Source: Escherichia coli
Lineage (GTDB): Bacteria; Pseudomonadota; Gammaproteobacteria; Enterobacterales; Enterobacteriaceae
Assembly: GCF_024502345.1 (NCBI RefSeq)
Contig: NZ_JALDNN010000001.1
Reading direction: 5' to 3' (one strand)
DNA: 64,000 nucleotides
The notes under the pieces were generated by a model that was given only the letters and a program-made list of their open reading frames with translations, was not told where the DNA came from and did no database searches. The translations under genes and the position numbers were made by a program. Of the stretch, positions 4,957 to 8,985 are shown in pieces (positions within the stretch are counted from its first letter, which is position 1; each line of letters opens with the position of its first letter).

Positions 4957-4982
4957 TCCCGCTGTAAAAGCGCATTTATCTT

Positions 4983-5014
4983 CAAGGCAGAGTTATCTCT
5001 GCCTTGAGTTTTTC
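4983..5014 (+). terminator. Intrinsic terminator downstream of minE
   Basis: Stem caaggcaga/tctgccttg with loop gttatc, followed by agtttttc. Confidence 0.7.
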
Positions 5015-5103
5015 ATCCCTCTCATCCACGTTGTGGTAAAGCGGCGAGTATTCTTGCTGATACTCCTCATTGCTATTTCCACCTCCCCCTTTACACCTTA
5101 AGG

Positions 5104-6160
5104 GGCTTTGTTGAATAAATCGAACTTTTGCTGAGTTGAAGGATCAGATCACGTATCTTCCCGACAACGCAGACCGTTCCGTGGCAAAGCAAAAGTTCAA
5201 AATCACCAACTGGCCCACCTACAATAAAGCCCTCATCAACCGTGGCTCCATAACTTTCTGGCTGGATGATGAAGCTATTCAGGCCTGGTATGAGTCAGCA
5301 ACACCTTCTTCACGAGGCAGACCTCAGCGCTATTCTGACCTTGCCATCACGACTGTGCTGGTCATTAAACGCGTATTCAGGCTGACCCTGCGCGCTGCGC
5401 AGGGCTTTATTGATTCCATTTTTTCTCTGATGAACGTTCCGCTACGCTGCCCGGATTACAGCTGTGTCAGCAGGCGGGCAAAGTCGGTTAATGTCAGTTT
5501 CAAAACGCCCACCCGGGGTGAAATCGCACACCTGGTAATTGATTCCACCGGGCTGAAGGTCTTCGGTGAAGGCGAGTGGAAAGTCAAAAAGCATGGCCAG
5601 GAACGCCGCCGTATCTGGCGTAAGCTGCATCTCGCCGTTGACAGTAAAACACATGAAATCATCTGCGCTGACCTGTCGCTGAACAACGTTACGGACTCAG
5701 AGGCCTTCCCCGGGTTAATCCGGCAAACCCACCGGAAAATCAGGTCAGCCGCCGCCGATGGCGCTTACGATACCCGGCTATGTCACGATGAACTGCGGCG
5801 TAAGAAAATCAGCGCGCTTATCCCTCCCCGAAAAGGTGCGGGTTACTGGCCCGGTGAATATGCAGACCGTAACCGTGCAGTGGCTAATCAGCGAATGACC
5901 GGGAGTAATGCGCGGTGGAAATGGACAACAGATTACAACCGTCGCTCGATAGCGGAAACGGCGATGTACCGGGTAAAACAGCTGTTCGGGGGTTCACTGA
6001 CACTGCGTGACTACGATGGTCAGGTTGCAGAGGCTATGGCCCTGGTACGAGCGCTGAACAAAATGACGAAAGCAGGTATGCCTGAAAGCGTGCGTATTGC
6101 CTGAAAACACAACCCGCTACGGGGGAGACTTACCCGAAATCTGATTTATTCAACAAAGCC
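5104..6160 (+). mobile_element. IS903-group insertion sequence (IS5 family), copy 1, 1057 bp, no target-site duplication
   Basis: Perfect 18-bp terminal inverted repeats GGCTTTGTTGAATAAATC (5104-5121 and 6143-6160); length 1057 bp; transposase ORF. Flanking 9-mers differ (ACCTTAAGG vs ATCGTGCAC). Confidence 0.93.
5181..6104 (+). CDS. IS903-type transposase (307 aa from GTG at 5181; the track ORF starts at TTG 5136)
   Basis: Translation VAKQKFKITNWPTYNKALINRGSITFWLDDEAIQAWYESATPSSRGRPQRYSDL... matches the IS903/IS102 transposase family from memory. Confidence 0.9.
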   Translation: MAKQKFKITNWPTYNKALINRGSITFWLDDEAIQAWYESATPSSRGRPQRYSDLAITTVLVIKRVFRLTLRAAQGFIDSIFSLMNVPLRCPDYSCVSRRAKSVNVSFKTPTRGEIAHLVIDSTGLKVFGEGEWKVKKHGQERRRIWRKLHLAVDSKTHEIICADLSLNNVTDSEAFPGLIRQTHRKIRSAAADGAYDTRLCHDELRRKKISALIPPRKGAGYWPGEYADRNRAVANQRMTGSNARWKWTTDYNRRSIAETAMYRVKQLFGGSLTLRDYDGQVAEAMALVRALNKMTKAGMPESVRIA

Positions 6161-6208
6161 ATCGTGCACACTACGCAGTCTCACAACTAACAAGAGGTTA
6201 TTATCCTG

Positions 6209-6613
6209 ATGGATCAGGTCGTTGTTTTTCAAAAGATGTTTGAGCAAGTGAGAAAAGAGCAAAACTTCTCCTGGTTTTATTCAGAATTAAAACATCACCG
6301 TATTGCACATTACATTTATTATCTGGCTACGGATAACATCAGAATTATTACTCACGATGACACGGTTTTGTTATTAAGAGGAACCAGGAACCTGTTAAAA
6401 GTTAGTACGACCAAGAACCCTGCTAAAATAAAAGAGGCCGCATTGCTTCATATTTGCGGAAAATCTACATTTCGGGAATACTGTTCAACACTGGCAGACG
6501 CGGGCGTTTTCCGTTGGGTTACTGATGTTAATCATAACAAACGCAGTTACTACGCCATTGATAATACGCTTTTATATATTGAAGATGTAGAAAATAATAA
6601 ACCATTAATCTAG
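6209..6613 (+). CDS. ycgX: DUF1398 family protein, YcgX-like
   Basis: 134-aa ORF immediately upstream of iraM, the K-12 position of ycgX. The protein sequence itself was not matched from memory. Confidence 0.6.
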   Translation: MDQVVVFQKMFEQVRKEQNFSWFYSELKHHRIAHYIYYLATDNIRIITHDDTVLLLRGTRNLLKVSTTKNPAKIKEAALLHICGKSTFREYCSTLADAGVFRWVTDVNHNKRSYYAIDNTLLYIEDVENNKPLI

Positions 6614-6828
6614 CTAAAGTTGGATGCTTAAGAAATGCTTCATAATTCAGTATGGCATTAGCATAATGGGAATAAAAGTACAGAGACTATCCCTATGGAT
6701 GATAAATACTGTCCTTTTATTGCTACCCATAAATAATCACCTGGCCAATACTATCAAATTGATATTTGAAATGTGATCACTTGACTTTCTATACGTTATT
6801 TCATAACGTTTAATATATTTATAAAAAC

Positions 6829-6851
6829 AACGGGCGTGCCATACGCCCGTT
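6829..6851. terminator. Hairpin aacgggcgt-gccat-acgcccgtt in the ycgX-iraM spacer; likely terminator
   Basis: Perfect 9-bp stem; the reverse strand is followed by a T-rich run. About 85% similar over roughly 50 bp to the hairpin at 7689-7711. Confidence 0.5.
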
Positions 6852-7308
6852 TCAATACTTAACGCACATGTGTTTTGGTTTAGTCATCATCCAGTTATAT
6901 GTATTTTAGCCAGGAACAGGTTAAACCTTTCCTATATAACTCAAAAATTGAAACCTTATTCTCATGTCATGCTTATATTCATTATTATCGTTATATAAAA
7001 AGGCAACCATAATGTTTAGCAAATTGGCACAAAGTAGCATAAAGGCTATGTTTTAATTACAGGATGGTCAGTCATTTGAATGTATAACATTATAGCTAAA
7101 CAAATCTAAAACGAAGTGAATAATTTATTGTTTTCACTAAATCTCATTTTGTTTAACATCCATTGAGATTCCTTGCTTTAAATTTTGTTTTATATAAGCA
7201 ATTGTTTTAATTAATTTATTTTTTGAAGGGGTAATATACTCATATGCAAAATAAAGAAATGAACATCCAAATGAACTATATTAAATACCGTGGGATAAGA
7301 CATAACAA

Positions 7309-7632
7309 ATGAAGTGGGTAGTAATTGACACGGTAATTCAACCTACATGCGGCATATCTTTTTCAGCCATATGGGGTGATATGAAAATGATTATCTGGTA
7401 TCAATCTACTATATTTCTTCCTCCTGGAAGTATATTTACACTGGTTAAGCCTGGTATTATCCTTAAGGATAAAGAATATCCTATAACTATTTATAACATT
7501 GCACCATTCAACAAGAATTTATGGAGTTTACTCAAAAGCAGTCAAGAGTGTCCTCCAGGAGAAAGCGAAATAACAAATAAATGTTTGCATAAGAGTTGTA
7601 TTATAAAAATATGCCCATATGGGCTCAAGTAA
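7309..7632 (+). CDS. iraM: Anti-adaptor protein IraM (stabilises RpoS against RssB)
   Basis: 107-aa [44 protein letters not shown]...; long AT-rich upstream region; adjacent to icd. Confidence 0.85.
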
Positions 7633-7688
7633 TGGGTTTTATATAAATATGCTCGATATGCTATTAATAATATCCACATAAATAAAAC

Positions 7689-7711
7689 AACGGGCGTGTT
7701 ATACGCCCGTT
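7689..7711. terminator. Bidirectional intrinsic terminator between convergent iraM and icd
   Basis: Stem aacgggcgt/acgcccgtt with loop gttat; on the reverse strand it is followed by GTTTTATTTAT, directly downstream of the icd stop. Confidence 0.7.
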
Positions 7712-7734
7712 TAAATATTTAACACATGTAGTGA

Positions 7735-8985
7735 TTACATATTTTTGATGATCGCATCACCAAACTCTGAACATTTCAGCAGTTTAGCGCCTTCCATCAG
7801 ACGTTCGAAGTCATAGGTTACGGTCTTCGCATTGATTGCGCCTTCCATACCTTTAACAATCAGGTCTGCGGCTTCGGTCCAACCCATGTGGCGTAACATC
7901 ATCTCAGCAGAGAGAATAATAGAACCTGGGTTAACTTTGTCCTGACCGGCATATTTCGGCGCAGTACCGTGGGTGGCTTCAAACAGGGCGCATTCGTCAC
8001 CGATGTTTGCACCAGGGGCGATACCGATACCGCCAACCTGCGCTGCCAGGGCGTCAGAAATGTAGTCACCGTTCAGGTTCATACAGGCGATAACATCATA
8101 TTCAGCCGGACGCAGCAGGATCTGTTGCAGGAATGCATCAGCAATCACGTCTTTAATGACGATCTCTTTGCCGGTATTCGGGTTTTTAACTTTCAGCCAC
8201 GGGCCGCCGTCGATCAGTTCACCGCCAAATTCTTCACGCGCCAGCTGGTAGCCCCAGTCTTTAAACGCGCCTTCGGTGAACTTCATGATGTTGCCTTTGT
8301 GCACCAGGGTCACAGAGTCACGATCGTTAGCAATTGCGTATTCGATCGCTGCACGAACCAGACGTTTGGTGCCTTCTTCAGAACACGGCTTAATACCGAT
8401 ACCGCAATGTTCCGGGAAGCGAATTTTCTTCACGCCCATCTCTTCACGCAGGAATTTAATCACTTTCTCGGCGTCGGCAGAGTCAGCTTTCCATTCGATA
8501 CCCGCATAAATGTCTTCCGAGTTTTCACGGAAGATAACCATATCGGTCAGTTCAGGGTGTTTAACCGGGCTTGGAGTGCCCTGATAGTAACGTACCGGAC
8601 GCAGGCAGATGTAGAGATCCAGTTCCTGGCGCAGGGCAACGTTCAGAGAGCGAATACCGCCACCAACCGGAGTGGTCAGCGGGCCTTTAATGGCAACGCG
8701 ATATTCACGAATCAGATCAAGGGTTTCAGCAGGCAGCCAGACATCCTGACCATAAACCTGTGTGGATTTTTCACCGGTGTAAATTTCCATCCAGGAGATT
8801 TTACGCTCGCCTTTATAGGCTTTCTCGACTGCAGCGTCGACCACTTTCAGCATGGCTGGGGTTACATCTACACCGATTCCATCACCTTCAATGTAAGGGA
8901 TAATCGGATTTTCAGGAACGTTGAGTTTGCCGTTTTGCAGGGTGATCTTCTTGCCTTGTGCCGGAACAACTACTTTACTTTCCAT
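7735..8985 (-). CDS. icd: Isocitrate dehydrogenase (NADP)
   Basis: 416-aa [41 protein letters not shown]...; no prophage is attached to its 3' end. Confidence 0.97.

Follow-up and report, generated by a model that had tools for sequence, protein, structure and literature searches.

A terminator of icd duplicated on both sides of iraM in Escherichia coli, probably a relic of an e14-type integration

The iraM gene encodes an anti-adaptor that sets the stability of the general stress sigma factor RpoS, and it is present in E. coli K-12 and absent from uropathogenic B2 strains. In the stretch of E. coli chromosome analyzed here (64,000 nt, hereafter termed the window), which carries minD-minE, IS5, ycgX, ymgL, ymgK, iraM, icd, rluE, nudJ and mnmA, a similar hairpin stands on each side of this gene. 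An earlier note, made from the letters of this DNA, had suggested that the two hairpins are a duplicated terminator module, in keeping with the AT-rich region around them being a mosaic of acquired DNA. What is this module, how did it come to be present twice, and what does its duplication reveal about the arrival of iraM at this site? The features involved are listed in Table 1.

Table 1. Coordinates of the hairpins and of the neighbouring features in the window
Feature	Positions	Strand	Description
ycgX	6209..6613	+	DUF1398 (Pfam PF07166), phrog_413; left neighbour of the duplicated module
ymgL	6666..6776	+	Small ORF between ycgX and copy A; annotated by RefSeq at the corresponding positions of loci L001, L003 and L067
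Copy A	6821..6872	-	Stem 6829-6837/6843-6851, loop GCCAT, minus-strand U-tract
Inserted segment	6873..7680	+	808 bp with ymgK, the iraM upstream region and iraM; interpreted as the remnant of a larger prophage-derived island
ymgK	7012-7056		Small ORF inside the 808-bp segment
iraM	7309..7632	+	Anti-adaptor of RssB; NCBIfam NF007393, phrog_4407
Copy B	7681..7730	-	Stem 7689-7697/7703-7711, loop GTTAT; convergent with the 3' end of iraM
icd	7735..8985	-	Intact 416-aa ORF; annotated icd in the closest genome

A repeat finder returns positions 6824-6866 and 7684-7726 as an ungapped 43-nt direct repeat that is 88% identical and measures 860 bp from start to start. The 9-bp stems (AACGGGCGT/ACGCCCGTT) are identical in the two copies and the 5-nt loops differ at two of their five positions, which establishes the duplication as real. 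Furthermore, the similarity is not confined to the stem, as an A-tract at the left and TTT-AATA-TTAAC at the right also match. The longer consensus proposed in the earlier note therefore stands in its core (stems, A-tract and AATA-TTAAC), whereas its outermost element, CACATGT, is marginal, because a 7-nt exact run of this kind is matched by 898 of 20,000 shuffles. Past about 50 nt the flanks of copies A and B are unrelated when aligned locally and compared with shuffles. The pattern AACGGGCGT-N5-ACGCCCGTT, with at most two mismatches allowed, occurs exactly twice in the 64-kb window (0.01 occurrences expected).

Six of the nine stem pairs are GC pairs, and the fold energies of both hairpins are about -17 to -20 kcal/mol (-16.8 to -19.8 overall, -16.8 to -18.2 for copy A; z-scores -1.5 to -4.1). 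A simple scan classifies both copies as terminator-like on the minus strand only, which is the strand of icd. Specifically, U-tracts are present on this strand at both copies (GUUGUUUUAUUUA and GUUGUUUUUAUAA), and the plus-strand tails (UUUCAAUACUU and, at copy B, UUUAAAUAUUU) fail the same scan. Copy B is located 24 nt past the stop codon of icd and about 50 nt past that of iraM. Copy A is located 216 bp past the stop codon of ycgX and about 50 bp past ymgL, and its good minus-strand U-tract has no minus-strand gene upstream, just as had been noticed from the letters. No Rfam family matches the hairpin module. One Term-seq study of E. coli 3' ends lists, in its supplements, no 3' end at iraM, icdC, ymgK or ymgL and none at the two hairpins; this region is poorly expressed.

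The identity of the module became apparent from a stem-motif scan in which each species was represented by one genome. The same hairpin, with the same loop and spacer, follows the icd stop codon in E. whittamii, Escherichia sp. E1V33, E. albertii and three Citrobacter species. The other matches of the scan are unrelated chance palindromes, and the bare stem motif turns up by chance in unrelated bacteria. Over 17 homologous copies the stem is 98.7% paired, with two compensatory pairs that are found in e14-type copies. Moreover, the module occupies one to five places per E. coli genome (median two), such that it is not a common genome-wide repeat, and the best matches listed all lie at the end of icd or of an icd fragment. 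Because of its conservation after icd, its stem pairing and its few copies at icd ends, the module is identified by comparative sequence analysis as the terminator of icd and not as a dispersed repeat.

On the same comparative grounds, copy B is assigned as the ancestral and working icd terminator, in agreement with its earlier description as the convergent terminator of icd and iraM. It probably also terminates iraM, more weakly than icd. Copy B resembles the bidirectional terminators found between convergent genes in that it has a GC stem with an A-tract on one side and a T-rich stretch on the other, but unlike these elements it carries a canonical U-tract on the icd side only. Copy A is likely to be an orphaned former icd terminator, and such an origin would explain why a good U-tract is found on a strand that has no gene there. 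In the K-12-type copy A (locus L003, 2119-2167), both bases of one stem pair are mutated, which converts a G-C pair into a C.U mismatch. This change suggests that copy A in K-12 is decaying under weak or no constraint. Unlike the K-12-type copy, copy A of the window retains an intact stem.

Several further matches to the module deserve comment. Most of those labelled as plasmids are non-mobilizable records of very large size and seem to be pieces of chromosome under a wrong label. The E. albertii locus and two or three Citrobacter loci were considered as outgroup empty sites and rejected, because integrases resembling those of phage 21 and e14 lie near the hairpin, such that these copies are phage-borne and do not give a clean polarity. 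These integrases (loci L004, L007, L028 and L033) are separated from the hairpin by about 40 bp in the E. albertii type strain and by 0.5-5.5 kb in Citrobacter. Their presence indicates that the icd hotspot and phage-borne copies of the terminator are common across genera. Locus L028 is labelled as a Sporosarcina metagenome-assembled genome, although the contig is clearly enterobacterial (its icd is 100% identical over 89 aa), and it is probably a binning contaminant.

How could a host-gene terminator be duplicated? The icd gene is the attachment site of e14 and phage 21, with the e14-type crossover about 165 nt inside the gene (Hill et al., 1989; Wang et al., 1997; both as cited in PMC12803456). 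Our query matches 31 phage records, 28 of which are Escherichia phages. The best-matching phages, phage 21 among them, match the window from position 7682 to about 7895, which corresponds to the hairpin plus the last ~165 nt of icd, and the phage-borne copies of the module start exactly at position 7682. In phage 21 this unit is carried by attP, beside int, and record M61865 of this phage is annotated 'icd pseudogene, xis, int'. Integrated relatives show the same arrangement. A lambdoid prophage of O157:H7 (L046) has the order int, three GTTTTGGGGAAG repeats, hairpin, icd, and both TUM9812 (L047) and the e14 of K-12 carry a variant hairpin, preceded by TTTTGATAA repeats, between prophage and icd.

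Since phages that integrate at icd carry the hairpin together with ~165 nt of icd, each integration adds a terminator and strands the previous one. This process is visible in K-12, where copy A, iraM, copy B, icdC, e14, the e14 hairpin (H') and icd follow one another and thus provide three copies in series. This series shows that the duplication mechanism operates today. Recombination between icd and icdC on loss of e14 has also been reported. In the strain from which the window derives, icd harbors no resident prophage. Although iraM has been described as being 'on the e14 prophage' (PMC4045071), the gene lies outside e14 proper and is present in strains that lack e14, such as the window strain.

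The genes near the hairpins are of prophage type, as judged from their families. IraM matches NCBIfam NF007393 with 168 bits (cut-off 121) and belongs to phrog_4407, ycgX belongs to phrog_413 and has the homologues ybcV and ydfO in lambdoid prophages, and a trkG-like gene of a related locus described below belongs to phrog_1916. In addition, iraM paralogues with about 72% nucleotide identity are found in lambdoid and Stx2 prophages between Q/stx and the lysis genes. No hairpin was found beside these prophage-borne paralogues, and their homology to iraM is limited to the coding region. The paralogue is arranged as a moron opposite to the late genes (L049, 8004-8327; L050, 8004-8339; L052-L055), between Q/tRNAs/stx2AB and nanS-p/lysis genes, and about 850 E. 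coli genomes as well as E. albertii carry only this ~72%-identical paralogue. Pfam PF11183 (PmrD) is a precomputed protein-database hit for IraM homologues; an hmmscan of the window IraM against local Pfam-A reports no family at E<=0.01, with NF007393 strong. A tandem duplication of a gene plus its terminator, with ycgX and iraM as the duplicated genes, was rejected because the two proteins belong to unrelated families (DUF1398 and IraM) and the flanks are unrelated.

The most informative relative of the locus comes from outside E. coli proper. The closest non-E. coli IraM cluster, with 73% amino acid identity, is formed by Escherichia sp. 10290, HH154_1D and KS167_9B. Strain 10290 belongs to cryptic clade I, which falls within one 95% ANI cluster with E. 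coli and is possibly a subspecies (PMC10100065). The clade I locus (L056-L064) is syntenic with the window and reads bluF, bluR, ycgX, copy A, a ymgB-like gene, iraM, a 75-aa ORF, the trkG-like gene, an IS5 fragment, a 455-aa gene, copy B and icd, with an island of 6.3 kb between the two copies. The trkG-like gene is a full-length member of its family and is 90% identical at the nucleotide level to trkG of the Rac prophage. None of the lambdoid prophages examined reproduces this gene order (trkG, then iraM) on its own, which indicates that the island is itself a mosaic.

Two features of this island point to integration at icd. First, copy A of clade I is followed by TTAACATATTCTTGAT, which corresponds to the icd stop codon and the last four codons. 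This stub includes a run of 13 of 13 nt identical to, and in register with, the end of icd beside copy B, a match that none of 20,000 shuffles reach. The duplicated stretch ends in this perfectly conserved 13-mer, ACATATTCTTGAT, and the spacer that precedes it has diverged. Second, copy B of clade I is preceded by an e14-type flank of TTTTGATAA repeats (p<0.0003 against K-12 e14), which are presumed arm sites of Int. The 455-aa gene (1,368 bp; L056, 13470-14837) has no significant Pfam, NCBIfam or PADLOC match. A clade I-specific PCR marker gene of 1,368 bp has been assigned to a 'putative genomic island' (PMC10100065), and from its equal length the 455-aa gene is probably this marker. If so, the marker sits in a prophage-derived island at the icd attachment site.

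Alignment of the window with clade I reveals how the two forms of the locus differ. Identity is 81% from ycgX through copy A, 72-75% over positions 6919-7280, 80% over iraM (7304-7670) and 97% from position 7681 onward, which covers copy B and icd. Three stretches of the clade I locus are missing from E. coli, namely about 215 bp that adjoin copy A on its right and contain the icd stub, about 460 bp that hold the ymgB-like gene, and 4.8 kb from the terminator of iraM itself to the A-tract of copy B; the e14-type flank next to copy B is therewith deleted in the window. The edges of the repeat in the window thus coincide with deletion junctions, and for this reason only the terminator module is still visibly duplicated. 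The divergence of island DNA between E. coli and clade I (72-80% identity, against 97% for icd) fits neutral decay and also fits separate acquisitions.

Two apparent traces of integration in E. coli itself were examined, of which one was discarded and the other left unclaimed. The window sequence on the right of copy A was considered as a decayed icd 3' end, but it aligns locally no better than shuffles do, and the stretch that MAFFT had aligned with icd there has its homologue inside the clade I island; an icd relic is present in clade I only. The flank to the left of copy A in E. coli looked convincingly e14-type by eye and lengthened a blastn match, but its similarity to the TTTTGATAA flank is marginal (p 0.03-0.26) and we do not claim it.

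The inserted segment is also polymorphic within the species. Of 5,426 complete E. coli genomes, 3,901 carry at least 80% of the 808-bp segment, and iraM-type matches of at least 90% identity occur once per genome, at the ycgX-icd locus. In the empty allele, the left flank of copy A, one hairpin and the right flank of copy B follow directly on one another, such that the order is ycgX, single hairpin, icd, and the locus lacks iraM and is exactly 860 bp shorter. This junction is found in ATCC 11775, Nissle 1917, APEC O2:K1:H7 and ST131, all of which we take to be B2 lineages. Because copies A and B are direct repeats, a recombination event that joins them takes out the iraM segment and nothing else, and the B2 allele is precisely what deletion between short direct repeats should yield (one hybrid copy, 860 bp lost). 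The allele therefore likely arose by loss. That it reflects loss rather than ancestral absence depends on clade I, which we take to be the sister group of all E. coli proper; if it is, the presence of the island in clade I makes loss in B2 the simplest reading. Strain CFT073 is reported to lack iraM and to use the paralogue IraL (PMC4045071).

Together, these observations lead us to favor, with good though incomplete confidence, an origin in which the two hairpins are copies of the icd terminator that were duplicated when an e14-type element bearing iraM inserted at the end of icd and subsequently decayed. Integration would have occurred in the common ancestor of E. coli and clade I, presumably by the action of an integrase. 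The element, with iraM as cargo, would have supplied a replacement icd 3' end (~165 nt) and the terminator hairpin beside its integrase gene, leaving icd intact; the host terminator would have become copy A and that of the element copy B. Later deletions would then have stripped the integrase and the phage body. Clade I still has the 6.3-kb island and, next to copy A, 13 nt of the displaced icd end, and in E. coli proper three further deletions would have reduced the insert to 808 bp with ymgK, the iraM control region and iraM, so that the surviving homology is just the ~45-50-nt terminator module. Finally, recombination between the direct repeats would have generated the single-hairpin, iraM-less allele of B2. 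The sequences show directly the repeat, the match of the module to the icd terminator, its copies in phages, the intermediate in clade I and the empty allele, whereas the action of an integrase, the order in which the deletions occurred and the loss of iraM from B2 (as opposed to its never having been there) are inferred. The earlier interpretation of the locus, according to which a terminator module was duplicated within mosaic DNA of foreign origin, is supported by the comparative data.

Some observations are less readily accommodated. Neither the window nor the clade I island contains an integrase or other recombination gene. Specifically, no integrase or excisionase ORF lies between the two copies in the window, no Int homologue is found in the E. 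coli loci L001-L003 from ycgX to icd, and no integrase Pfam family is found among the called genes of the clade I island. Because the window itself has no detectable icd coding remnant beside its copy A, the case depends on the orthology of the clade I intermediate. Furthermore, the icd relic in clade I measures about 16 nt where about 165 nt are expected, and an additional deletion or a different crossover point must be assumed.

In an alternative scheme, the hairpin itself would have served as the crossover site. Circular DNA carrying iraM and a hairpin would have recombined with the icd terminator, either through some site-specific recombinase or through RecA with the help of ~45 bp of homology (the conserved 13-mer being an alternative site), and the B2 allele would never have been occupied. 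The sharp ends of the homology at the module edges in the window lend this scheme some appeal, but these edges are deletion junctions relative to clade I and hence are secondary. The perfect 13-mer of clade I next to a diverged spacer likewise has the look of a recombinase core; however, the flank of copy B in clade I is e14-type, and e14-type crossover occurs ~165 nt inside icd according to the references cited in PMC12803456 and to the phage-borne matches. An exact empty site does exist, as the scheme demands, yet the presence of the island in the sister clade makes its absence from B2 more parsimoniously a loss. We therefore judge crossover at the hairpin to be unlikely.

Far less probable is a transposon-like insertion of an iraM cassette that produced the 45-50-bp repeat as its target-site duplication. 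Direct repeats around a discrete insert with a known empty site are what such an event leaves behind. However, known bacterial transposons produce target-site duplications of about 2-14 bp, and a repeat of 43-50 bp is too long. In addition, the insert lacks terminal inverted repeats and a transposase, it is a shrunken form of the 6.3-kb island of prophage-type genes, and the same unit was not found at other genomic sites, given that the iraM-type matches at the identity threshold used above number one per genome, at this locus. That the hairpins are members of a dispersed repeat family (REP-, BIME- or MITE-like), or terminators that look alike by chance or convergence, is scarcely credible, because, although GC-rich palindromes of this size are common among terminators and the bare stem motif arises by chance in unrelated bacteria, E. 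coli genomes hold only one to five copies with the best matches listed all at icd or icd-fragment ends, two copies occur in the window against 0.01 expected, positions outside the stem are similar, and Rfam contains no such family.

The favored origin by integration at icd and decay has close relatives among known systems. It shares its locus with e14 and phage 21, whose insertion (attL/attR, with icdC in K-12) likewise replaces the icd 3' end and strands the old one. Unlike these elements, the iraM region has no integrase, excisionase or phage body, and of the displaced icd fragment clade I retains ~16 nt and E. coli nothing, leaving the terminator as the only part recognizably duplicated. 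As in grounded or cryptic prophage remnants, one useful AT-rich cargo gene of a phage family (iraM) survives, but here the remnant is unusually small (808 bp), is bounded by a duplicated host terminator and has no recognizable att cores. The process itself, integration at the icd hotspot followed by decay, is known and its mechanism is textbook; an origin of iraM by this route was not found described in the literature searched.

If the favored origin is correct, iraM is the last cargo gene of an old icd-hotspot element and not a part of present-day e14. The duplicated terminator gives a concrete history to the presence of iraM in K-12 and its absence from B2 strains, and the flanking repeats offer a simple route to its exact loss. 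More generally, the locus shows how a host-gene terminator accumulates in several copies when phages integrate one after another at the same site, and an orphan terminator whose good U-tract lies on a strand apparently devoid of genes could be used to mark an ancient insertion. In practice the consequences are small, although the relic would explain both the arrival of iraM and its absence from many E. coli lineages.

Might copy A still serve a function? It possibly retains a residual role as a putative transcription barrier between ycgX/ymgL and the iraM control region. A broader and rather doubtful proposal is that the repeats make iraM a removable cassette, whose loss by repeat-mediated deletion and re-acquisition through recombination with iraM-positive strains would switch the control of RpoS stability in a lineage, as in B2 strains that may have lost iraM and use IraL. 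Under the same proposal, copy A would have been retained in iraM-positive strains because it insulates the H-NS-silenced, PhoP-controlled iraM promoter from ycgX/ymgL transcription and stops spurious antisense transcripts from leaving the region. With regard to promoters, the region as a whole contains no more promoter-like sites than shuffles do. The best sigma-70-like match (TTGAGC-17-TATAAT, 10/12) is found on the minus strand at window positions 7600-7628, within the 3' end of iraM and antisense to it.

The surroundings of the locus bear the marks of other mobile elements. Directly between minE and ycgX, the window has an IS5 copy at positions 4957-6208 (transposase ORF 5136-6104). The same interval spans about 10 kb in other E. 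coli and in clade I, with ymgI/ymgD/ymgF, pdeG, ycgZ-ymgABC, bluF and bluR, and in the closest genome, that of O78 strain 3, an IS5-family element is also present in the interval and bluR is kept. The window strain appears to have undergone a larger IS5-associated deletion in which the bluF-bluR/ymgAB module was removed. The AT-rich spacer between ycgX and icd is itself a frequent IS target, with insertions in several strains (hits H12, H21, H30 and H41; E. coli genomes) that include ISEc20 (IS110-like), IS200C (once or twice) and an IS1 that splits iraM in FDAARGOS_944. Cargo genes other than iraM can also adjoin the icd attachment region. In phage D2 (L066, 3632-5279), the manganese-transporter genes sitA and sitB begin within about 1 kb after the attP-borne icd fragment and provide a further example.
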